Source: Dehalococcoidia bacterium (GTDB lineage: Bacteria; Chloroflexota; Dehalococcoidia; Bin125). Taken from it: DNA of 64,000 nucleotides. The notes under the pieces are model-generated. The model searched no databases and was not told the origin of the DNA. It saw nothing but the letters and a program-made list of their open reading frames with translations. Both the position numbers and the translations under genes were made by a program. The DNA lies in the NCBI GenBank assembly GCA_965242485.1, contig CBDESM010000003.1:1549362-1613361 (forward strand), read 5' to 3'. This document shows, piece by piece, positions 12,682 through 63,516 of this stretch (the stretch's first letter is position 1; every line of letters starts with the position of its first letter).

Positions 12682-13533
12682 TCAGAAAGCGAGATCGAGC
12701 GCGATGTCGAGGGCGGGGGCGGAGTGGGTGAGCGCGCCGAGGGAGATGTAGTCGACGCCGGCGGCCGAGATCGCTTCGATGTCGGCGAGGGCGATGCCGC
12801 CGCTGGCTTCCGTGGTCGCGCCAGCGCGGGCCGCGAGCGCCGCGGCGGCGGGGAGGTCGGCGAGCGCGAAGTTGTCGAGCAGGAGCGAGCGCGCTCCCGC
12901 CGCCAGCGCTTCCTCGGCTTCCGCCGCGGAGGTGACTTCAACCTCGACTGCCGTGGCGGGGCCGACGTTCTGCAAGGCGGTGCGGACGGCGTCGCCGAGG
13001 CTGCCGCCGGCGGCGCGGACGGCGGTGATGTGGTTGTCCTTGATCAGGACGCCGGCGGCGAGGTTGTCGCGGTGGTTGAGGCCGCCGCCGCAGCGGACGG
13101 CATAGCGCTCGGCCGCGCGCAGTCCGGGCGTCGTCTTGCGGGTGTCGAGGATGCGGGCGCGGCCGCCGCGCCGGGCCGCGGCGACGGCGGCAGCGGTCAG
13201 CGTGGCCGTGCCGGAGAGGCGCTGGAGGAAGTTCAGCGCGACCCGCTCGCCGGCGAGGATGCCGGCGGCGGAGCCTTCGATGCGGGCGATTCGGCGGCCG
13301 GCGGCGACCTGCTCGCCGTCTGCGGCATCCGCCGCGAATTCCGCGCCGATGGCGGTGATCTCGAAGGCGGCGCTGGCGAAGCCGATGCCGCAGATGACGC
13401 CGTCGGCGCGGGCGATGATCTCGCCGGCCGCGTCGCGCATCCAATCGGCGAGCGACATCGTCGTGACGTCGAGGCCGGCGCGGTCCTCGGCAAGCGCGGC
13501 TGCGGCGAGCGCGCGGATGGCGGCGCGATCCAT
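12682..13533 (-). CDS. nadC: Nicotinate-nucleotide pyrophosphorylase (quinolinate PRTase)
   Basis: QPRTase-like sequence; start at MDRAAIR, 5 bp after the nadB stop. Confidence 0.85.
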   Translation of the reverse strand: MDRAAIRALAAAALAEDRAGLDVTTMSLADWMRDAAGEIIARADGVICGIGFASAAFEITAIGAEFAADAADGEQVAAGRRIARIEGSAAGILAGERVALNFLQRLSGTATLTAAAVAAARRGGRARILDTRKTTPGLRAAERYAVRCGGGLNHRDNLAAGVLIKDNHITAVRAAGGSLGDAVRTALQNVGPATAVEVEVTSAAEAEEALAAGARSLLLDNFALADLPAAAALAARAGATTEASGGIALADIEAISAAGVDYISLGALTHSAPALDIALDLAF

Positions 13534-38816: not shown

Positions 38817-41789
38817 ATGCCCGTCTCCGCCCCGCCCAGGCCCGTGCTCGAAGGCGCGACCGCCTCGCGCTACCCCAGCGTCGAGCGCGCCCGCCGGATG
38901 CTGCGGGACGCGCCCGCCGGCCTGCGCGCGCTCGCCGACGACCTCCGCGCCGCCGTCGAACTCCCGGCGGACGTGCTCGTCGATCGCCCCTCGCGCCTGC
39001 TCTTCGCCACCGACGCCTCGCTCTACGAGATGGAGCCGGTTGCCGTCGTCTTCCCCCGCAGCGCCGAGGATGCCGCCGCCGCCGTCAACGTCGCGCGCGC
39101 CCGCGGCGTGCCCGTCCTGCCCCGCGGCGCCGGCACCAGCCTCGCCGGCCAGGGCGTCAACCACGCCGTCGTACTCGACTTCACCCGCTGGATGGACGGC
39201 ATCATCGAGATCGATCCCGCCGCCCGCACCGCCCGCGTCCAGCCCGGCCTCGTGCTCAGCGAACTCAACAAGGCGGCCCGCGAGCACGGGCTGCAGTACC
39301 CGATCGACCCGTCGACCGCCAACCGGGCCACCATCGGCGGCGGCATCGGCAACAACTCCTGCGGCACACACTCCGGCCTCTACGGCAAGACCATCGACGT
39401 CGTCGACTCCGTCGCCGTCGTGCTAGCCGACGGCTCCCGCCTCGAATTCGCCCGCCGCGAAGGCTCCGAACTGCGCGGCCTGCTCGACGCCGGCGGCCCC
39501 GAAGGCCGACTCTTGGCGGACCTCCGCGCCATCGCTGACGAGCACCGCGGCGAGATCGCCGAGCGCTTCCCCGACATCCCCCGCCGCGTCTCCGGCTACA
39601 ACATCGAAACCCTGCTCGATCCCGATGCCGCCGATCTCTCGCAGCTGATCGTCGGCTCCGAGGGCACCCTCGCCGTCGTCACCGAGGCCTCCGTCCAGCT
39701 CGCGGAACTGCCCAAGCGCCGCGGCGTGCTGGCCGCGCACTTCCGCACGCTCGTGGAGGCCGCCGAGGGCACGCTGATCGCCCGCGAGCGCGATCCGGCC
39801 GCCATCGAGCTGGTCGACGACATCATCATCGAGCGCTGCCGCTCCTCGACCGGCTACGCCCCGCTCGCCGATTTCGTCCAGGGCGAGCCCGGCGCGGTGC
39901 TCCTGATCGAGGCGTTCGGCGAGGACGAGGAGGACGTGCGGGGGCAGCTCGCGCGGATCGAGCACGACCTGCTCCGCGCCCGCACCTGCTACGCCGCCGT
40001 CACCGAGCTCGATCCCGCCGCGCAAGCGCGGATGTGGAGCATGCGCCAGGCCGGACTCGGGCTGCTCATGTCGATGCACGGCGACGCCAAGCCCGTCGCC
40101 TTCGTGGAAGACGCCGCCGTCCCGCCCGAGCATCTGCCCAAGTTCGTCGCCCGCTTCGATGTCGCCGTGCGCAATTTCGGCCTCCGCGCCGGCTACTACG
40201 GCCACGCCGCAGCCGGCTGCCTCCACATTCGCCCCATCGTCGACGTCAAGGACAAGGCCGGCCTCGAAACGGCCGAGCGCCTCGCCGAAAAGATCGCCGA
40301 CCTCGTGGTCGAGTTCGGCGGCAGCCTCTCCGGCGAGCACGGCGACGGCATCGTCCGCGGCGCATTCCTCGAGAAGATGTACGGCCCGCGCCTGGTCCAG
40401 GCCTTCCGCGACGTCAAGTCCGTCTTCGATCCCGAAGGCATACTCAACCCCGGCAAGATCATCGATACCCCGCCGTTCCGCGACAATCTCCGCCTCTCGC
40501 CCGCGACGGTTAACCATGATCCGCAGCCGCTGCTCGGCTTCCAAGCCGAGGGCGGCCTCGCCCGCGCCGTCGAGATGTGCAACGGGCAGGGCGCGTGCCG
40601 CAAGTTCGACGGCGCCATGTGCCCCTCGTTCCAAGTCACGCGCGACGAGGAGCACTCCACCCGCGGCCGCGCCAACCTGCTCCGCCAAGTCCTCAACGGC
40701 GGGCTGCCGGCCGACGAGCTCGCCGGCGACCGCCTCCATGCCGCGCTCGATCTGTGCGTCGAGTGCAAGGCCTGCAAGGCCGAATGCCCTTCCGGCGTCG
40801 ACGTCGCCAAGCTCAAGTACGAAGTGCTCTCCCAGCGCCGCCTTGCCCGCGGCGCTCCATTGAGGGACCGCGCCTTCGCCCGCATCGACCGATTGGCCGC
40901 CTGGGGCGCCCGCGCCGCGCCGCTCGCCAACCGAATCGCCGGCATCGGCCCGGCCCGCTCCCTGCTCCACCGCCTCGGCATCCACCGCGACCGGCCGCTG
41001 CCGCAGTTCGCATCGCGCACCTACGACCAATGGCGCGCCGATCGCGAGCCGCCGAGAACGAAGCGCGGCGAAGTCGTCCTGTTCGTTGATACGTTCACCA
41101 ACTACTTCCATCCCGAAGTCGGCATCGCCGCCACGCGCATCGCCGAAGCGCTCGGCTATCGCGTGATCAGCGTTGACCAGCGCGAATGCTGCGGCCGCCC
41201 CTCGATCTCCAAGGGCGAGCTCGGCCGCGCCAAGCAATTGGCCGAACATAACGTCGCCGCGCTCGTCGGCTACGCCCGCCGCGGTATCCCCGTCATCGGC
41301 GTCGAGCCCTCCTGCATCCTCACGCTGCGCGACGAGTACCCGCTGCTGCTGCGCAGCGCCCCCGCCGCGATGGTGGCCGAACGCGCGCTCCTCTTCGACG
41401 AATGGCTCGCCGCCGAGCTCGAGCGGGAAGACGGCCCCGGCATCTTCCGCCCGGCCGACCGCGAGCTGCTCGTCCACATCCACTGCCACCAGAAAGCGCT
41501 CGCCGGCTTCACGCAGACGCTCGACGTACTGAAATCCGCCGGCTACGCCGCCAGCGTCGTCGACTCGGCCTGCTGCGGCATGGCCGGCTCCTTCGGCTTC
41601 GAAGCCGAGCACTACGAGATCTCGCGCCAAATGGCCGACCTGCGCCTGCTCCCCGCCATCGAGAACGCATCGCCCGACGCCCAAATCGCCATCACCGGCG
41701 TCTCCTGCCGCCAGCAAATCTCCCACTTCGCCACCCGCCAACCCCGCCACCTGCTCGAATACCTATCCGACGCCCTCACCACCGATTGA
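38817..41789 (+). CDS. FAD-linked oxidase (GlcD-like) fused to a 4Fe-4S dicluster and CCG (GlcF/GlpC-like) domains; putative D-lactate/glycolate/2-hydroxyacid dehydrogenase
   Basis: FAD_binding_4 N-terminus, CxxCxxCxxxCP ferredoxin motifs, C-terminal cysteine-rich CCG repeats. Confidence 0.8.
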   Translation: MPVSAPPRPVLEGATASRYPSVERARRMLRDAPAGLRALADDLRAAVELPADVLVDRPSRLLFATDASLYEMEPVAVVFPRSAEDAAAAVNVARARGVPVLPRGAGTSLAGQGVNHAVVLDFTRWMDGIIEIDPAARTARVQPGLVLSELNKAAREHGLQYPIDPSTANRATIGGGIGNNSCGTHSGLYGKTIDVVDSVAVVLADGSRLEFARREGSELRGLLDAGGPEGRLLADLRAIADEHRGEIAERFPDIPRRVSGYNIETLLDPDAADLSQLIVGSEGTLAVVTEASVQLAELPKRRGVLAAHFRTLVEAAEGTLIARERDPAAIELVDDIIIERCRSSTGYAPLADFVQGEPGAVLLIEAFGEDEEDVRGQLARIEHDLLRARTCYAAVTELDPAAQARMWSMRQAGLGLLMSMHGDAKPVAFVEDAAVPPEHLPKFVARFDVAVRNFGLRAGYYGHAAAGCLHIRPIVDVKDKAGLETAERLAEKIADLVVEFGGSLSGEHGDGIVRGAFLEKMYGPRLVQAFRDVKSVFDPEGILNPGKIIDTPPFRDNLRLSPATVNHDPQPLLGFQAEGGLARAVEMCNGQGACRKFDGAMCPSFQVTRDEEHSTRGRANLLRQVLNGGLPADELAGDRLHAALDLCVECKACKAECPSGVDVAKLKYEVLSQRRLARGAPLRDRAFARIDRLAAWGARAAPLANRIAGIGPARSLLHRLGIHRDRPLPQFASRTYDQWRADREPPRTKRGEVVLFVDTFTNYFHPEVGIAATRIAEALGYRVISVDQRECCGRPSISKGELGRAKQLAEHNVAALVGYARRGIPVIGVEPSCILTLRDEYPLLLRSAPAAMVAERALLFDEWLAAELEREDGPGIFRPADRELLVHIHCHQKALAGFTQTLDVLKSAGYAASVVDSACCGMAGSFGFEAEHYEISRQMADLRLLPAIENASPDAQIAITGVSCRQQISHFATRQPRHLLEYLSDALTTD

Positions 41790-41846
41790 GCATCTGATAC
41801 CCCGGACGCAAAGCCGGGCTGCCGCGTACTCGCGCCACAAGAGGAG

Positions 41847-42183
41847 GTTGGTGGCCCGGGGCAGAGTCGAGCTGCCGGCGCCGCGCCTCCGGCAATGGCA
41901 GCCAGTGCCTGCTCGCATCGCAAGCGGAAAGGTTGGTGGCCCGGGGCAGGGTCGAACTGCCGGCACCACGCCTCCGGCAATGGCAGTCAGTCGTGTGCTG
42001 GTGGCGCAAGTGGGAAAGGTTGGTGGCCCGGGGCAGAGTCGAACTGCCGGCACCACGCCTTCGGCAATGGCAGTCAGTCGTGTGCTGGTGGCGCAAGTGG
42101 GAAAGGTTGGTGGCCCGGGGCAGAGTCGAGCTGCCGGTGCCGCGCCTTCGGCAATGGCAGTCAGTCGTGTGCTGGTGGCGCAA
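41847..42183 (-). repeat. Four tandem ~87-bp repeats, each containing a degenerate tRNA-Phe 3' portion (T-arm plus acceptor plus CCA)
   Basis: Unit starts at about 41847, 41921, 42008, 42095; each carries GGCAGTTCGACTCTGCCCCGGGCCACCA on the minus strand. Confidence 0.6.
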
Positions 42184-42259
42184 GTGGAAAGGTTGGTGGC
42201 CAGGGGCAGAGTCGAACTGCCGACACCACGATTTTCAGTCGTGTGCTCTACCAACTGAG
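42184..42259 (-). tRNA. tRNA-Phe (anticodon GAA)
   Basis: Cloverleaf; anticodon loop CTGAAAA; T-loop GTTCGACTC; CCA encoded. Confidence 0.85.
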
Positions 42260-42307
42260 CTACCTGGCCGCGGGCACCAATCATACAGTGCAGCGGGAGG
42301 CCGAGTG

Positions 42308-42625
42308 ATGCCGCCGGACGTTGACGAGCTGGATTGGAGTGCCGACATTCCGTCGAAGCTCGGACGACACGGCTTGACGACCGACGATGCGCAGGACGTG
42401 TTCAGAATCCGTCCGCTGCTCGCGTGGCAGAAGGAGGAATGGCAGTTGGGAGACGATGGACTGCTCCGTCTGAGGCCTCGACGCGTCAGGATGATCGGCC
42501 CTGACTACTCGGGGCGCTTCCTGACGTTTATCCTTGAAGCACCGGACGATCGTCGCGTGTCACAGATCGTCTCGGGCTGGCCGGCTACGCGGCGCGACAT
42601 CGCCCGCTACCGCCGAGCCAGATGA
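42308..42625 (+). CDS. brnT: BrnT-like (DUF497) toxin of a type II toxin-antitoxin module
   Basis: GRHGLTTDDAQDVF and GRFLTFILEAPDDRRVSQIVSGWPATRRDIARY resemble the BrnT family; toxin-first gene order. Confidence 0.55.
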   Translation: MPPDVDELDWSADIPSKLGRHGLTTDDAQDVFRIRPLLAWQKEEWQLGDDGLLRLRPRRVRMIGPDYSGRFLTFILEAPDDRRVSQIVSGWPATRRDIARYRRAR

Positions 42626-42641
42626 TCCGCGCGACTGCACA

Positions 42642-42929
42642 ATGACCGACTACGACGACTGCATCTGCCCGAATGACAGCAGGGACCACCTCCCCCACTG
42701 CGCCTTCGCCGATGAGGACCAATGGGAAGAGGGCGAGATCATCGAAGGCAAGACCGTGAGGATGCATGTGCGCGCCGTTTTCGAAGGCGACGAGTACCGC
42801 GCTTTCTCGGCGATGATGCGCGCGAACGGCGAGTGGCATCCCAACCGCTATCTCAAAGACTTGGCGATGCGCGCCATCGAGGAATGGCAGGCAGTGCCGC
42901 AGCACTCTGCCGTCGCGGAGGGCGACTGA
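42642..42929 (+). CDS. BrnA-like ribbon-helix-helix antitoxin paralog 1 with Cys/His-rich acidic N-terminal extension
   Basis: DDCICPNDSRDHLPHC N-terminal segment, C-terminal RHH (KTVRMHVRAVFEGDEYRAFSAMMRANGEWHPNRYLKDLAMRAIEEW). Confidence 0.5.
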   Translation: MTDYDDCICPNDSRDHLPHCAFADEDQWEEGEIIEGKTVRMHVRAVFEGDEYRAFSAMMRANGEWHPNRYLKDLAMRAIEEWQAVPQHSAVAEGD

Positions 42930-42935
42930 CCGGGC

Positions 42936-43232
42936 ATGCCTGCTACCGCTGATCCGGGCTGTCGTCTAGACGACTGCATTTGCCCGGCAGACAGACGGGA
43001 TCACCGGCCCGATTGCCCGTATTCCGATATCGGGCTCTGGGACGACGAAGAAGATGGCGTTGGCATGATCGTACGGGTCCCGTTCGAGCAGCAGCAGTAC
43101 GGCGCGCTCCGCGCGATGATGCGCGCGCATGGCGAGGACAACCCCAACCGTTTCGTTCGAGACATGATGCTCCGCGCTATCGAGGAATGGCAGGCGGTGC
43201 CGCCGCACTCCGCCGTCGCGGAGGGCGACTGA
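42936..43232 (+). CDS. BrnA-like antitoxin paralog 2 (diverged copy)
   Basis: DDCICPADRRDHRPDC ... MIVRVPFEQQQYGALRAMMRAHGEDNPNRFVRDMMLRAIEEW. Confidence 0.5.
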   Translation: MPATADPGCRLDDCICPADRRDHRPDCPYSDIGLWDDEEDGVGMIVRVPFEQQQYGALRAMMRAHGEDNPNRFVRDMMLRAIEEWQAVPPHSAVAEGD

Positions 43233-43238
43233 CCGGGC

Positions 43239-43547
43239 ATGGCCTCCGCTGTTGATCTGGAAGATCGCCTAGACGACTGCATCTGCCCGAATGACAGCAG
43301 GGACCACCTCCCCCACTGCGCCTTCGCCGATGAGGACCAATGGGAAGAGGGCGAGATCATCGAAGGCAAGACCGTGAGGATGCATGTGCGCGCCGTTTTC
43401 GAAGGCGACGAGTACCGTGCTTTCTCGGCGATGATGCGCGCGAACGGCGAGTGGCATCCCAACCGCTATCTCAAGGACTTGGCGATGCGCGCCGTCGAGG
43501 AGTGGCAGGCGGTGCCGCCACATTCCGCTGTTGCGGAGACTGATTAG
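43239..43547 (+). CDS. BrnA-like antitoxin paralog 3 (near-identical to paralog 1)
   Basis: Near-identical DNA to 42650-42930. Confidence 0.5.
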   Translation: MASAVDLEDRLDDCICPNDSRDHLPHCAFADEDQWEEGEIIEGKTVRMHVRAVFEGDEYRAFSAMMRANGEWHPNRYLKDLAMRAVEEWQAVPPHSAVAETD

Positions 43548-43554
43548 CGGGGGC

Positions 43555-44250
43555 TCAGGGCTCGCGCATGCTGGCTACTACGGGGGCGGCCTTGGCGCGG
43601 ACTTGGTCGAAGACCTCTTCGACCGAGCCGCGGGCGTCGACTACGTCGAAGCCGTAGCGGTCCGACATTTCGCGGAACTCGGCGATCATCTTGCCCTGGT
43701 GTTGCACGAACGCGTCGTGGATCGACGCCCCCTGCAGGTAGTCGCCGCCCGACTCCCAGTAGTCGAACCCGCGCTCCAGCACCCGCAGCACGAGCTGATC
43801 GACGTCGATGTCGAGGTAGATCACCTGGTCCGGCACCAGCGCGAACGAGTAGACGTCTTCCAGCCAGGCCCGCGGCGCACCGCGCACCGTCGCGCGCGCG
43901 ATCAGCGAGAAGATGTAGCGGTCGACCAGCGCAACCATGCCCGCGCGCAGCGCCGGCAGCACGATCCTCTCGAAGCGGTCCCAGAAATCGGTCGCGTAGA
44001 ACAAATTCAGCGTGATCGGGTCCAGCGTGTGCCCGCGCTTGGCCCGCTCGATCCCCGGCCCGACCAGCGGCGAGCGCCGCAGGCCGCTGTCGACGACGCC
44101 GAACCCTTCCGCCTCGAGCCATTCCTTCAGCAGCGAGATCGCGGTCGAGCGGCCCACTCCGTCGGTGCCCTCGATCACGATCATCCGGCCCGGCAGGTCG
44201 GCCGTGCCGACGCCCGGCGGCGGGTCGCCGTAGAAGCGCAGGTCGGTCAT
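43555..44250 (-). CDS. Thymidylate kinase-like P-loop kinase (paralog 2)
   Basis: P-loop IEGTDGVGRST and DRY lid motif; tandem with a paralog. Confidence 0.55.
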   Translation of the reverse strand: MTDLRFYGDPPPGVGTADLPGRMIVIEGTDGVGRSTAISLLKEWLEAEGFGVVDSGLRRSPLVGPGIERAKRGHTLDPITLNLFYATDFWDRFERIVLPALRAGMVALVDRYIFSLIARATVRGAPRAWLEDVYSFALVPDQVIYLDIDVDQLVLRVLERGFDYWESGGDYLQGASIHDAFVQHQGKMIAEFREMSDRYGFDVVDARGSVEEVFDQVRAKAAPVVASMREP

Positions 44251-44260
44251 CGCGCCCGCC

Positions 44261-45055
44261 TCACGATCGCGTCTCGCGGCGCGCGCCGACATCGGGCAGG
44301 TACACCCCTTGCAGCCCCGTCGCCTTGAGCAGCTCCGGGATCTCGTGCGGCTGCCGCCGCGGCAGCCCTTCCAAGTGCGGCGCCACGATCGCCCGCAGCT
44401 TCGCCTGCTGCGCGACGAGCGTGTCGGTCGCGTCGATCCGCTGGATGTCGAACTCTTCGCACAGCGCTTCGTACTCGGCCACGATCCGGCCTTGGAAGAT
44501 GCGGAACGATTCGACGATGTCCTCGCTCAGCCCCATGTCGAGGCCGGCTTCGTAGTACTGGATCGCCTCCCGCGCCGACGAGATCCGCGAGATCGATTCC
44601 TCCAGCGGCACGTCGAAATAGAACGCCAGCGTCGGCGGCACCGCGAACGAGTACAGATCGCGCACCCAGCCGCGGTTGACCCCGCGCGCCGCATCCCGGG
44701 CGAACGCGGTGTAGACGTAGCGGTCGGCCAGCACGATCACGCCGGATTGCAGCGCCGGCAGGATCTGCTCGTAGGTCCGCGAGGCGAAGTCGGCGGCGTG
44801 GATCAGGCTGAAGCTCATCGGCGTCAGCAGCCGCCGCCGCTTCCCCCGCCGCGTCGTGCCGCGCACGATCGGGGCCGAGTTCCAAGTCGTGAAGACGGTG
44901 ACGTAGCCCTCGGCCCGCAGCCATTTGTGCAGCAGGTCCAGCTGCGTGCTCTTGCCCGAGCCGTCGATTCCCTCGACGACGATCAACTTGCCGGGCAGCG
45001 CCGAATGGTCGACATCGGCCGGATGGGGCATCCCGGTGCCGGCGTGCTGGGTCAT
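44261..45055 (-). CDS. Thymidylate kinase-like P-loop kinase (paralog 1)
   Basis: P-loop VEGIDGSGKST and DRY motif. Confidence 0.55.
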   Translation of the reverse strand: MTQHAGTGMPHPADVDHSALPGKLIVVEGIDGSGKSTQLDLLHKWLRAEGYVTVFTTWNSAPIVRGTTRRGKRRRLLTPMSFSLIHAADFASRTYEQILPALQSGVIVLADRYVYTAFARDAARGVNRGWVRDLYSFAVPPTLAFYFDVPLEESISRISSAREAIQYYEAGLDMGLSEDIVESFRIFQGRIVAEYEALCEEFDIQRIDATDTLVAQQAKLRAIVAPHLEGLPRRQPHEIPELLKATGLQGVYLPDVGARRETRS

Positions 45056-58305: not shown

Positions 58306-59989
58306 GATGACCGCTGAAGAACAGCTGGCGAGCTGGCGCGAGGGGACCTATGGGAAGGCGGTCTCGCGGTTTCCGGAGCGGCGGGGGGAGTTCCGGCGCT
58401 CTTCGGGGGGGGCGCTGGAGCCCGTCTATGTGGGGGGGGACGGGGATGGGGTGCCGTTGCCGGGGGAGTTCCCGTATACGCGGGGGATTCAGCCGACCAT
58501 GTACAGGGGGCGGCTGTGGACGATGCGGCAGTACGCGGGGCAGGAGGATGCGGAGGCCTCGAACCGGCGCTACCGCTTCCTGCTCGAGCAGGGGCAGACG
58601 GGGCTCTCCGTCGCCTTCGACCTGCCGACGCAGATCGGCTACGACTCCGACGCGCCGATGGCCGAGGGCGAGGTGGGCAAGGTCGGCGTCGCGATTGATT
58701 CCATCGACGACATGCGGACGCTGTTCGACCAGATCCCGCTCGACCGGGTGACGACCTCGATGACGATCAACGCGACCGCGGCGATCCTGCTCTCGCTCTA
58801 CGCCGCCGTCGGCGAGGAGCAGGGCGTGGCGCTGGACAAGATCGGCGGCACGGTCCAGAACGACATCCTCAAGGAATACGTCGCGCGCGGCACCTACATC
58901 TACCCGCCCGCGCCCTCAATGCGGCTGATCACGGACACCTTCGCCTACTGCACTGAGAACGTGCCGCGCTGGAACACGATCTCGATCTCCGGCTACCACA
59001 TGCGCGAGGCCGGCTGCACGGCCGCGCAGGAGATCGGCTTCACGCTGGCCAACGCCATCGCCTACGTCGAGGCCGCGCAGGCCGCCGGGCTCGCCTTCGA
59101 CGACTTCGGCCCGCGCCTCTCCTTCTTCTTCGCCTGCCACTCCAATTTCCTCGAGGAGGTCGCCAAGTTCCGCGCCGCCCGCCGGCTCTGGGCGACCATC
59201 GCCCGCGACCGCTTCGGCTCAGCCAACGAGCGCGCCCAGATGCTGCGCTTCCACACCCAGACCGGCGGCGTCACCCTGACCGCGCAGCAGCCCGACAACA
59301 ACGTGATCCGCACGGCCCTGCAAGCGCTCGCCGCGGTGCTCGGCGGCACCCAATCGCTGCACACCAACTCGCTCGACGAAGCGCTCGGCCTGCCCTCCGA
59401 GCACGCCGTCGAGATCGCCCTCCGCACCCAGCAGGTGATCGGCTACGAAAGCGGCGTCGCCGACGTGATCGACCCGCTCGGCGGCTCCCACTACATCGAG
59501 CAGACCACCGACCAGCTCGAGGACGAAGCCCGCCGCATCATCGACCAGGTCGACGCCCTCGGCGGCGCCGTCTCCGCCATCGAAGACGGCTTCCAGCAGT
59601 CCGAAATCCTGGCCGCCGCCACCGAGTTCCAGCACGAAGTCGAGACCGAAGTCGAAGCCGCCCGCGCCGGCGACGGCTCCGCCGGCGCCAAAGGCCGCGT
59701 CATTGTAGGCGTCAACCGCTTCCAGACCGAAGAACCCACCGACGTGGAGATCGTCCGCGTGGACCCCAGCGTCCGCGAACGCCAAACCGAAAAACTCGCC
59801 CGCCTCCGCGACGCCCGCGACGAAGCCGCAGTCCGCGCCGCCCTCGACCAGATCTCCCAAGCCGCCGCCGGCGACGAAAACCTGCTCCCCCTGATGCTCA
59901 ACGCCGTCAAAACCTCCGCCACCCTAGGCGAAATCTCCAACGCCCTCCGCCAAGTCTGGGGCGAATACCGCGAACGCATCGTGGTCTAG
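58306..59989 (+). CDS. Methylmalonyl-CoA mutase family protein, substrate-binding (N-terminal TIM-barrel) domain only
   Basis: MCM large-subunit catalytic-domain sequence ([20 protein letters not shown]); no B12-binding domain in this ORF. Confidence 0.8.
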
Positions 59990-62643
59990 CGATCCTCGTC
60001 CTCAACGGCAGCACGCTGGTTGCGCTTCACCAAATGATCACGGATTGCCTCGCGGGTATGGAGTCGCTCGGTGCTATCTCCTTTGCGGGCATAGAATTCT
60101 GATTTGCCCTTCACGATCCAGTTTGCCCCGGATTCGGGGCCCGGATCACAGCTGACGATCAACAGGGTTTTACCACGGATAGTCACTGTTTCCCAAACAA
60201 CAAGCGTCACGATGTCAAAATCTTCCAAAGGGTTGCCTGAATGAATATTCTGCAGATTACTGTGAAGGATCTGATTCGCGCTATCAATCTTCTTATCGAT
60301 AGTATCACCTGCCAAACCTTGATCTGCTTCAAGGCCGACCACATCTCGGTTGCTGTCTTCAATGCCGATGATCAGCCGACCTCCATCTGTGTTGAGAAAA
60401 CCGACGACTGTGCGAATCGCCTCGCGAGTCATTTCACGTGTATCGTCAGCTGATTCATCTCCTTTCAAGACCGCTTTGAATTCTAGCGTTTGCGATTCTG
60501 ATTCTCCAATCAGTGCCTCAAGCCACTGGTCGCGGTGTTCGGCAGTGATATGGTGGTTGTCATAGTCAATGCTGGTTACACGAATCGGGATAGTTTCTCC
60601 GATCCGATCGCGACGGGATCTGCTGGGCTTGTCAGATTCGGGGATATGTTCAGGAGAGATTATGGCCAGCAGCCCAGAACCGAGGTCAACTTGGGCTGCC
60701 CTTGAGCTGACCGTGCGCAGTTCTGCATTGACCTCGCTACCAACTTCAAACTTTGCCACGAGATCCTGCCAGCGAGCATCAAAATCCTTTAGCGAGACGA
60801 TTGCGGAACCTCCCTCGGGGTCAACAGATTCGATGACGACACCAAGAGGGTGGTTGGCCTTGAAAGACATAAACTCGGCTGCATCAGCCGGGCTAAATTC
60901 TTCTTCCCGAATATATCCTGTGATCGGACCAAGATCGACCGCGACACGTTGTTCATCATCTGGCATCGCAGCCTCAGGGATGACCACAGCATTAGACACG
61001 AGCACCCCATCTGCGAATTGTGCGACATAGTCTTTCCAATCGCCTATAGCACGGCGATGCGATAACCGGTTGGCCAAGCCATCATCACCGATATCAAGTA
61101 CGACGACATCGATCTCCGAATTGGATTCGAAACGAAATTGCCGTTCAACAAAGCAATCTAGCTCATGATTAGGAATGAAAACATTCGTACTCGCAACAAG
61201 GACGTTGATGCCACCGATTCGGCTACCTCGCACTACAGCTTTGATCGTCGCGCCCACGGCGTGGGCCTTGAGCTCGGCTGCTCGTGATTGATTGCTGAGA
61301 ATAATCATGCGACTCTCACGGTCGATCTGCCAGACGAACAGGTTCTGCACAATGTCCCTGGTTTTGTAGAGGTCCGTTGCCATTTCACCTGTTGGCACCG
61401 GCCATTCGCCTGCGGGGACAACGCCGATCACACCATTGATGTCTACCCAGAGCGAATTGGGTAGCACATCCGTGGCTGTGCCTGAGACGCCGACACCGAC
61501 ATAGAGCTTATCAAGCGTGTCAAGGTAGCCAGGCATGTTGCGACGGATGGAGAGTCCGAGATGACGAGAGTCCCGGTCGATCCACCAGACGAACAGGCCC
61601 TGCACTGTGTCGCCTGTCTTGTAGAGGTCTGTGGCCATCTCGCCGGTTGGCAGTGGCCATTCTCCTGTAGGGACGGCACCAATCACGCCATCAATGTCTA
61701 GCCAGAGCGTGTCGGGCAACACTGCCATGGCGGTGCCGGAAACGATGTCGCCGACATGGTACTTGTCAAACGCATCAAGGTAGCCAGGTACATTGCGACG
61801 GATAGAGAGTCTAAGTTCCCGAGAGTTGCGGTCGGTCTGCCAGACAAACAAGTCCTGCACTGTATCACCTGTTTTGTAGAGATCTGTAGCCATCTCACCG
61901 GTTGGCAGCGGCCATTCTGCTATAGGAACGAAGCTGATTACGCCATTGACGTCCAACCAGAGCTCGTCAGGTAGCACTGTTGTGGCGGTGCCGGAGACGA
62001 CGTCGCCGACGCGGTGCTTGTCAAGTACATCAAGGTAGCCGGGCGCATTGCGACGGATAGAGAGTCCGAGTTCCCGAGAGTTGCGGTCGATCCGCCAGAC
62101 GAACAGGTCCTGCACAGTGTCACCGGCCTCGTAGAGGTCGGTTGCCATTTCGCCTGTAGGCAGCGGCCATTCGGCTGTGGGGACAAAGCCGATCACGCCA
62201 TCAATGTCCAGCCAGAGCGTACTTGGCAGCACCGCCATGACGGTGCCGGAGACGACATTGCCGACACGGTGCTTGTCAAACGCATTGAGGTAACCGGGCG
62301 CATTGCGGCGAATGGAGAGTCCGAGATGGCGCTCCTCACGGTCGATCCGCCAGACGAACAGGTCCTGTACAGTGTCACCGGCCTTGTAGAGGTCGGTTGC
62401 CATTTCGCCTGTAGGCAGCGGCCATTCGGCTGTGGGGACAAAGCCGATCACGCCATTGATGTCCACCCAGAGCTCGTCAGGCAGCACCTCAGTGACAAGG
62501 CCAGTGACGTTGTCGCCGACATGGAGTTGCCCGAGCCGATCGTTGGTTATCGGGGAGGGAGGGCGAGCAGTCATTCCCCTATCACGTGATGGGCGCGGCA
62601 ACTTCTGGGGCGGCTTCCGGCGGGACTTCTTGGGCTTGGGCAT
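59986..62643 (-). CDS. Multi-S1-repeat protein with C-terminal Schlafen/AlbA_2 domain (putative RNA-sensing defence or stress protein)
   Basis: Lower-GC gene; about 8 S1-like OB repeats, 5 of them near-identical 74-aa units; C-terminus [11 protein letters not shown] ... [31 protein letters not shown] matches the AlbA_2/Schlafen N-terminal domain; start at MPKPKK. Confidence 0.7.
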
Positions 62644-62697
62644 GGTGGGGAGTTTAGGGCATGTCGTAGACTGCGCTGCCGTAGAGGAGGGTCGGTC

Positions 62698-63516
62698 ATG
62701 GCATTGACGCGGATTCATCACATTGGGGTGGCGGTGCGGGATGCGGATGCTGCCGCGGCTGTTTGGGCTGAGGCGTTCGGGCTTTCTGTGGCGCTGGATG
62801 CGGAGCTGGAGGAGCAAGGGGTGCGGGGGGTGATCTTGCCGTTGGACAACTGCGAGATCGAGCTGCTGCAGCCGACGCGGGAGGGGACGGGGATCGCGAA
62901 GTACTTGGAGGCGAACGGGGAGGGGTTCCATCACGTCTGCTTCGAGTCGACCGATGTGGCGGGGGATTTGCGGGCGGCGGCGGACTCGGGGATGCAGATG
63001 ATCGACCGGGAGCCGCGGGTGGGGCTGACGGGGATGATCGGGTTCATCCATCCGCGCGAGAATCACGGGGTGCTGGTCGAGTACGCGCAGCCGCCGGAGG
63101 ATGCGCCGCGGCACGGCGGGCCGGCGGGGGACGACGCGGCGCACGCGCTGCACCACATGACCGTCGCGGTGCACGACGTGGCGGCCGTGGCGGCTGAGTT
63201 CGCGGGCAAGTTCGGGTTCGAGGGGCGGGAGCCGTTCGAGAACGCGGGGCTGGGGATCGCGGGGCAGTTCACGGATTTGGGGCCGACGGCGATCGAGCTG
63301 ATCACGGGGCTGCCAGGAGCGGCGGAGGGGCCGTTGCAGAAGCGGCTGGCGAATCAGGGCGAGGGGATGTTCATGATGGCGCTGACGGTGCGCGACGCGG
63401 AGGCGGCGGTGGCGCGGCTGCGCGGGCACGGGATGACCGTGACGGACGCGGGCGCGGGCGCCTTCATCTCCCCCCGCGGCACGTTCGGCGCGCGGGTGCG
63501 GCTCTCTGAGGCCTGA
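62698..63516 (+). CDS. Tandem VOC (glyoxalase-fold) protein, likely methylmalonyl-CoA epimerase
   Basis: Two VOC modules (HHIGVAVRD ... HHMTVAVHD); genomic association with the mutase-family gene. Confidence 0.65.
   Translation: MALTRIHHIGVAVRDADAAAAVWAEAFGLSVALDAELEEQGVRGVILPLDNCEIELLQPTREGTGIAKYLEANGEGFHHVCFESTDVAGDLRAAADSGMQMIDREPRVGLTGMIGFIHPRENHGVLVEYAQPPEDAPRHGGPAGDDAAHALHHMTVAVHDVAAVAAEFAGKFGFEGREPFENAGLGIAGQFTDLGPTAIELITGLPGAAEGPLQKRLANQGEGMFMMALTVRDAEAAVARLRGHGMTVTDAGAGAFISPRGTFGARVRLSEA

Follow-up and report, generated by a model that had tools for sequence, protein, structure and literature searches.

What turns the 3' end of a single tRNA gene into a row of near-copies of itself? 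The question is raised by a locus in an uncultured Dehalococcoidia bacterium of the Chloroflexota (assembly GCA_965242485.1, contig CBDESM010000003.1, positions 1,549,362 to 1,613,361), of which we analysed the whole stretch of 64,000 nucleotides (nt), hereafter the window. Here an intact tRNA-Phe gene on the minus strand is followed, directly after its encoded CCA, by tandem units that repeat its own 3' part. A preliminary description of this DNA had offered two readings: stacked attachment-site scars in a decayed integration hotspot, or a tRNA-derived tandem repeat. We consider it likely that the array is a lineage-specific, non-coding minisatellite derived from the tRNA gene, which arose through local tandem duplication and persists through unequal recombination. 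The features in question are listed here in the direction of tRNA transcription.

42280-42287, minus strand: extended -10-like promoter element TGTATGAT, read from the sequence.
42194-42269, minus strand: intact tRNA-Phe(GAA) gene with encoded CCA (ARAGORN; Rfam RF00005, 71.8 bits, E 3.8e-15).
42108-42193, minus strand: repeat unit A, 86 nt (Tandem Repeats Finder, alignment, profile search).
42021-42107, minus strand: repeat unit B, 87 nt, 98% identical to unit C (Tandem Repeats Finder, alignment, profile search).
41934-42020, minus strand: repeat unit C, 87 nt (Tandem Repeats Finder, alignment, profile search).
41849-41933, minus strand: repeat unit D, 85 nt, which differs most from the other three (alignment, profile search).
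41790-41848, minus strand: decayed remnant of a fifth unit, 59 nt, filling the gap from unit D to the stop of the neighbouring FAD-oxidase gene (aligns with the 5' part of the units).

The basic arrangement had been noticed before, and it is borne out by ARAGORN and Rfam for the intact minus-strand tRNA-Phe(GAA), and by Tandem Repeats Finder for the four contiguous direct units beyond it. The repeat call covers 41845-42230 with a period of 87, 4.5 copies, 91% matches and a score of 611; its half copy is the 3' part of tRNA-Phe itself. Units A-D start directly after the encoded CCA and occupy 41849-42193 without interruption, and they are 80-98% identical to each other. As they are homologous over their full length and have no unique spacers, they do not form a CRISPR array, which had also been stated. 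The count of four copies holds for full units, but it should be extended by the decayed remnant, where CTTGTGGCGCGAG matches the 5' part of a unit in a related genome (L100_2) at 13 of 13 positions. The same remnant is found in a second relative, L099. Unit D retains a 5' hairpin, GCTTGC-GAT-GCGAGC, that is also present in relatives.

The repetition is specific to this one tRNA. The last 25 nt of tRNA-Phe recur four times with one or two mismatches each, while none of the other eight predicted tRNAs of the window has an adjoining copy of its 3' tail; the sole extra match is between the tails of two tRNA-Val genes. A profile built from the units matches only the four units and tRNA-Phe in the 64 kb (E 1e-19 to 2e-24).

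Each unit can be divided into four parts. The first is a stretch of about 21 nt, ACCTTTCCCACTTGCGCCACC, homologous to the native flank downstream of tRNA-Phe. It is followed by 13 nt, AGCACACGACTGA, identical to nt 23-35 of the tRNA, and then by a 16-nt insert, CTGCCATTGCCGRAGG, which stands in place of the four anticodon-loop bases AAAT. The last part corresponds to tRNA nt 40-76, that is the 3' strand of the anticodon stem, the variable loop, the T arm, the 3' strand of the acceptor stem, the discriminator A and CCA. With the exception of the loop insert the unit aligns gap-free to tRNA nt 23-76, and positions 20-86 of the unit profile align to the last 55 nt of the tRNA (nt 22-76). Alignment to the tRNA 3' half had been proposed as a check on the preliminary description, and the units do align. 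That description had seen an anticodon-stem-to-CCA portion in each unit, which is correct, but the tRNA share is larger than it stated, because nt 23-35 belong to it as well and are split from nt 40-76 by the insert.

What the units lack is the 5' strand of the acceptor stem. Their first 20 nt are not complementary to the acceptor 3' strand, and they match the 5' part of tRNA-Phe at only about 5 of 20 positions, as counted from the alignment. Neither ARAGORN nor the Rfam tRNA model calls any unit as a tRNA; only the first gene has the cloverleaf and acceptor stem of a tRNA gene. Duplication of the whole tRNA was considered, as its length would fit (76 - 4 + 16, or about 87), and was rejected, because the first 21 nt of the unit resemble the native flank and not the tRNA 5' part.

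The source of these 21 nt is the decisive point against the attachment-scar reading. They match the downstream flank of L025, a related locus that has no array (CTTTCC-CACTT..GCCA-CCAGC against CTTTCCTCACTTGCCAGCCAGC; shuffle p<=0.002), and the matching stretch includes the stop codon of the FAD-oxidase gene. Further, the 5' part of the units in two other relatives, L104 and L105, matches the 3' end of the FAD-oxidase gene of L100 and L102 (CGGCTTGATCYGCG, 13/14; shuffle p<=0.002), and the stretches beyond the last unit of the arrays also resemble unit 5' parts (shuffle p<=0.002). We therefore read the unit as nt 23-76 of tRNA-Phe together with about 21 nt of the DNA that originally lay beyond it, which is what a local tandem duplication yields.

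The 16-nt insert is found nowhere else in the window. Its core, CTGCCATTGCC (11 nt), was searched for with exact and degenerate patterns, giving 7 matches in IMG/VR, 16 in the GTDB species representatives (185,579 genomes) and 73 in the JGI metagenomes; all are single chance matches with unrelated flanks. Units as diverged as those of L104 and L105 would escape the exact patterns. An element elsewhere that carries the non-tRNA part of the unit, as the preliminary description had envisaged, was thus not seen in the window or in these collections. The unit profile has no match outside the syntenic arrays in the window and the related loci. Within the subgroup of the window the insert core is the best conserved segment of the unit, with 93% pairwise identity; the T arm reaches 86%, and the 5' leader and one hairpin loop 53-58%. 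This conservation weakens when the L104/L105 subgroup is added, where 8 of 32 positions around the insert differ. The first five bases of the core duplicate the 3' strand of the T stem (CTGCC), so that an alternative long hairpin with GGCAG is possible.

We compared eleven syntenic loci, found through homologues of the FAD-oxidase and the members of their clusters. They are given here with the identity of the FAD-oxidase to that of the window.

L106, 71%: no array; tRNA-Phe 32 nt from the FAD-oxidase stop codon.
L025, 77%: no array; tRNA-Phe 6 nt from the FAD-oxidase stop codon.
L107, 78%: no array; tRNA-Phe 6 nt from the FAD-oxidase stop codon.
L024, 89%: one decayed unit and a partial one.
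L105, 91%: one unit and a partial one.
L104, 91%: three units and a partial one.
L100, 96%: two units and one decayed.
L102, 96%: three units and one decayed.
L101, 96%: five units and one decayed.
L099, 98%: three units and a remnant.
Window: four units and a remnant.

The array is present at every examined locus with a FAD-oxidase identity of at least 89%, and absent from the three loci at 71-78%. This distribution indicates that the array arose once, after the split from the group at 77-78%, and its copy number has changed since then. The locus is clearly variable, with 0-5 units at syntenic positions, as the preliminary description had anticipated. Head-to-tail non-coding units whose number differs among close relatives, here 1-5 intact units in eight genomes, are what is meant by a minisatellite or variable-number tandem repeat (VNTR).

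One pair of genomes is particularly informative about the changes in copy number. L100 and L101 have 97.9% DNA identity in the flanking gene and 100% in the 60 nt upstream of tRNA-Phe; L100 holds just the three distal units of L101, a difference of three units. The state of L100 is a contraction, such as would result if the 3' part of the tRNA recombined with a unit. Decay is greatest, in all arrays, in the unit most remote from tRNA-Phe: distal units share 60-73% identity with the others, and the proximal ones 71-98% among themselves. By clustering, the single unit of L024 belongs with the distal units of L100-L102. A conserved housekeeping gene directly adjoins the array in each of the genomes examined.

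One of the tRNA-Phe genes stands apart in a detail. In L101 (7466-7475, minus strand) the gene ends in ...GGCCACC and continues directly with TTCC, so that the terminal A of CCA is not encoded, while the window and the other relatives encode CCA.

From these observations a course of events can be proposed. The ancestor would have had tRNA-Phe beside the convergent FAD-oxidase gene, as is still the case in L025, L107 and L106. A tandem duplication would then have copied the DNA from about nt 23 of the tRNA to about 21 nt beyond its 3' end, at a junction where the alignments suggest only 3 nt of microhomology (AGC), and the duplicated copy would also have borne the 16-nt replacement of the anticodon loop. 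Only the first copy would retain the 5' third of the tRNA and the promoter and stay a functional gene; the other copies would be truncated pseudo-tRNAs. The 3' part of the tRNA is almost identical to each unit over about 55 nt, which would then allow unequal homologous recombination or replication slippage, leading to expansion and contraction. The same near-identity would permit patchy gene conversion against the tRNA, and with it partial homogenisation, while units at the far end would escape and decay.

Scans for an intrinsic terminator or a sigma-70-type promoter in the array found none. With no intrinsic terminator between tRNA-Phe and the array the units are probably co-transcribed as a 3' trailer of the tRNA, and they would then be removed during 3' maturation. 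A C>G skew like that of Rho-utilisation sites is only moderately high on the transcript strand: the proximal units fall at the 80th-95th percentile and the distal ones do not stand out, a result that decides nothing. If the units have a function, it is probably weak; they might space the two convergent genes or help to terminate transcription between them, or yield by-product RNAs similar to the RtT repeats of Escherichia coli.

It should be said that several points weigh against this account. The 16-nt insert is present in all units, the oldest included, and the account leaves its source unexplained. The uneven conservation, highest in the insert core, could reflect selection rather than neutrality; gene conversion from tRNA-Phe cannot have supplied that core. 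The persistence of the array through about 15% divergence of the flanking DNA could hint at some benefit. Transcription, processing and the mechanism of recombination are things that we infer from the sequences. Finally, the very first duplication might conceivably have been a single ancient integrase-mediated event.

The last point leads to the stacked attachment-site scars of the preliminary description, where elements with a tyrosine recombinase would repeatedly have integrated at the 3' end of tRNA-Phe and been excised or decayed, each leaving a displaced tRNA 3' fragment. There is a real resemblance to the attL and attR sites of islands and prophages at tRNA genes, since a copy of the tRNA 3' part lies downstream of the intact gene. 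Att sites of an anticodon-loop type exist, and the direct repeats studied here do start near the anticodon stem. The copy farthest from tRNA-Phe is the oldest and sits at the original place of the tRNA, as expected of a displaced attR, and toxin-antitoxin cassettes have been gained and swapped at the locus. The copies are nevertheless contiguous, with a fixed period and no element between them. The spacers have only about 37 nt and are the same in every unit, 21 nt of each being native flank and 16 nt the insert, whose core gave nothing but chance matches on viral, genomic and metagenomic contigs. A constant unit length of 82-88 nt is the outcome of tandem duplication and would not be expected from independent decay of different elements. 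The swapped cassettes lie 5' of tRNA-Phe and are not bracketed by the repeats. Out of three marks of attachment scars, only the tRNA 3' direct repeat downstream of an intact gene is found, while foreign DNA or an integrase gene at the repeats was not found, nor an attP in the window and the collections searched. No mobile-element gene was seen in the precomputed Pfam annotation within 3-6 kb in ten related loci, nor in Pfam scans of the window genes beside the array, and neither an integrase nor an element remnant in the eleven loci. The absence of a nearby integrase had been remarked on earlier and is confirmed by the scans of the flanking genes; a decayed integration hotspot, which had been suggested from it together with the flanking genes, is not supported. 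The flanks hold no integrase or transposase family, and foreign DNA is absent both between the repeats and beside them. Taken together we regard stacked scars as highly improbable. An explanation as an artefact, either a mis-collapsed or mis-expanded repeat in the assembly or a coding repeat of 29 residues (87 = 3 x 29), we find scarcely credible. It is true that the array is open in all six frames and has a period of 87 in the window. These frames run on through the tRNA gene, however, and long spurious open frames are common across the region in DNA this rich in G+C. The period of 86 in relatives and the lengths of 85, 86 and 87 nt within one array break the reading frame and exclude a coding repeat. 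Likewise, misassembly, or a single-copy locus identical in all relatives, which the preliminary description had named as a way to be wrong, is excluded by units that can be told apart (80-98% identity) and by comparable arrays of 1-5 units in seven other, independently assembled syntenic relatives.

A different kind of alternative is that the array is kept for the RNA it produces. Cleavage of the tRNA-Phe transcript at the tRNA-like 3' ends of the units would release them as small RNAs, which might serve as an RtT-like regulator, a sponge of the 3' external transcribed spacer (3'ETS) type, or a CCA-ended tRNA mimic that decoys a tRNA-targeting enzyme or toxin. Retention of the array in all four sublineages with at least 89% FAD-oxidase identity speaks for it, as do the T arm, discriminator A and CCA kept in proximal units and the toxin-antitoxin cassettes that adjoin the locus. 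The insert (UGCCR) forms a hairpin with YGGYR that pairs in each of 16 units and contains one covarying pair (A-U, G-U, G-C); unit A converts three wobble pairs of this hairpin to Watson-Crick pairs, and variation is greater in loops than in stems. RtT, the analogue in E. coli, is annotated as an RNA, with reported support by covariation (PMC8250186; PMC3318445). Predicted stability is, in contrast, no better than that of dinucleotide shuffles, with fold z-scores between -0.66 and +0.16 when units are folded singly and of +0.09 when tRNA and array are folded as one transcript, and the 23 units have no common minimum-free-energy fold. We considered three candidate structures: that of RNAalifold, a tRNA-like three-way junction with the new hairpin, and a retained anticodon stem. 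RNAalifold gives a small three-way junction of GCC/GGC, the hairpin UGCCR-loop-YGGYR and the T arm, with a covariation term of -0.5 kcal/mol. One covarying pair lies in the 5-bp hairpin and one in the T stem, but the overall measures are not above the shuffle controls, being reached by 23-354 of 500 shuffles. The other two structures were compared with shuffle and slide controls, and neither was clearly above them. The hairpin degrades to all-wobble or mismatched pairs in the units of L104 and L105, distal units decay, and L024 keeps only a decayed unit. With no 5' acceptor strand a tRNA-like minihelix cannot form, and the units are not called tRNA-like by ARAGORN or Rfam; in Rfam searches over the locus (window 41000-43500, E<=10) tRNA was the only family matched. 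L025 has a Panacea cassette without an array, so there is no linkage between the array and toxin-antitoxin genes. Functional trailer RNAs are accordingly unlikely in our view. The stronger version, in which the units are processed into stable tRNA-mimic RNAs, either RtT- or 3'ETS-like or serving as decoys for a tRNA-directed activity such as that of the cassette toxins, with the copy number under selection and CTGCCATTGCC as functional motif, we hold to be very unlikely.

A minisatellite derived from the tRNA thus remains the preferred reading, and the anatomy of the unit (tRNA nt 23-35 and 40-76) upholds the second option of the preliminary description. The genes around it have a conserved order: thi genes, FAD-oxidase, tRNA-Phe, two tmk-like genes, tRNA-Ala, rimM, a KH-domain gene, rpsP and ffh. 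The FAD-oxidase/Fe-S gene (38817-41789, from Pfam; stop codon 41787-41789) is convergent with tRNA-Phe, and its closest named homologues are proteins of metagenome-assembled genomes of Chloroflexota and Dehalococcoidia. On the other side, the 3' end of the promoter element TGTATGAT lies 10 nt upstream of the mature 5' end of the tRNA. At the same distance CTGTATGAT is found in all syntenic loci, taking the form GGTGTATGCT in L106, the most distant relative. A generic scan with two hexamers found no full sigma-70 site; we infer that TGTATGAT is its putative promoter.

The tandem tmk-like genes had been recognised before, and PF02223 is indeed found in both. They are two adjoining genes of the thymidylate kinase family (43555-45055, minus strand; 245 and 264 amino acids (aa); E 2e-16 and 3e-19), kept as a pair in all eleven related loci, and their open reading frames (ORFs) as called overlap by about 30 nt.

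The variable genes of the locus sit on the 5', or promoter, side of tRNA-Phe and not between the repeats. In the window, L099, L101, L102 and L105 there is a weakly BrnT-like gene of 105-134 aa with a small partner gene, of which only the partner is called in L100. L024, L025 and L104 instead have a SocA/Panacea antitoxin gene, in L024 and L104 beside an unannotated gene of 130 aa. L106 and L107 have nothing at this spot, which lies between the tRNA-Phe promoter and the tmk-like genes. The cassettes lie at 7420-8354 in L104, 7173-7793 in L105, 3969-5250 in L024 and 9100-10001 in L025. Since L104 and L105 have different cassettes at 95% flank identity, replacement is rapid; a recombinase gene is not visible. 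The spot is a hotspot of toxin-antitoxin cassette turnover that is unrelated to the array, as also follows from the cassette without an array in L025.

In the window this spot (42308-43547, plus strand) holds a BrnT-like gene of 105 aa followed by three tandem paralogues of 95-102 aa with a conserved DDCxCP...DH...C motif. The earlier name brnTA triplet is weakly founded: PF04365 (BrnT) gives E=0.032 and 15 bits where the cut-off is 34.5, and the three small paralogues match no family. Copy 1 shares 94% identity with copy 3 and 57% with copy 2, and L099 and L105 have a single copy; the triplet is a second recent tandem duplication at the locus.

Two further observations concern other parts of the window. 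ARAGORN predicts an 87-nt tRNA-Ile(GAT) at 13008-13094 (plus strand), which is probably a false positive: its 3' end, ...GCCGCCGCCGCAGC, has no CCA-like end, and it overlaps a GC-rich simple repeat at 12976-13025. At 61319-62487, in the ORF 59986-63429 (minus strand), there is a coding tandem repeat of 255 bp with 4.6 copies at 80% identity. It encodes repeats of 85 aa (...VGDVVSGT...), which we take, by eye, to resemble S1/OB-type domains; the ORF is listed with 1147 aa from its first possible start, and its N-terminal part looks non-coding.

How does the tRNA-Phe array compare with known systems? Bacterial intergenic minisatellites and VNTRs are represented by the MIRU loci of mycobacteria. 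They share with the array head-to-tail intergenic units of tens of bp, a variable copy number and more diverged units at the edge. In contrast to them, the array is derived from the adjoining tRNA gene and occupies a single locus, without being dispersed. The 3'ETS-leuZ sponge of E. coli is a tRNA 3' external transcribed spacer with a function of its own. Like the array it lies directly 3' of a tRNA, and both would be co-transcribed with the tRNA and released in its maturation, but repetition and derivation from the tRNA are features of the array only.

The comparison bears on how such loci are read. Partial copies of tRNA 3' ends are routinely taken as island boundaries (att sites) in annotation, an inference that would be wrong at this locus. 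The array suggests that a minisatellite can grow out of the 3' end and flank of a tRNA gene with no mobile element involved. Taken with the gradient of decay, relatives with 0, 1, 2, 3, 4 and 5 units form a natural record of how an array is born, grows, shrinks and decays. Should the units prove to be stable RNAs, the question of the role of RtT-type trailer repeats would be revived; no finding presented here requires that they are.

The closest known analogue is the repeat distal to tyrT/tyrV in E. coli. Behind tyrV in NC_000913.3 a 178-bp unit is repeated 3.1 times at 95% identity, and every repeat closes with AATCCTTCCCCCACCACCA, the 3'-terminal 19 nt of tRNA-Tyr. The annotation names this region rttR/tpr, and as a positive control its units score 133-137 bits against RF00391. 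What is said here on RtT biology follows secondary sources (PMC3318445, PMC8250186, bioRxiv 10.1101/2024.07.17.603846). In both systems tandem units stand directly 3' of a tRNA on the same strand, each ending in the 3' sequence of that tRNA with CCA, in about 3-4 copies between the tRNA gene and the next gene. The sequences are nonetheless unrelated, with no match to RF00391 at E<=10 in window 41000-43500 (gathering score 45 bits). The E. coli unit has 178 nt against 85-87 nt for the array, and its tRNA content is 19 nt, while that of the array is 13 + 37 nt with an insertion in the anticodon loop. One system belongs to tRNA-Tyr in Enterobacteria and has tpr, the other to tRNA-Phe in Chloroflexota and has no tpr-like ORF; RtT is an annotated RNA, while the transcript of the array is a predicted one. 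The array shares the architecture and evolution of RtT and not its family membership, and it provides a second, independent and phylogenetically remote example of the architecture found behind tyrT/tyrV.

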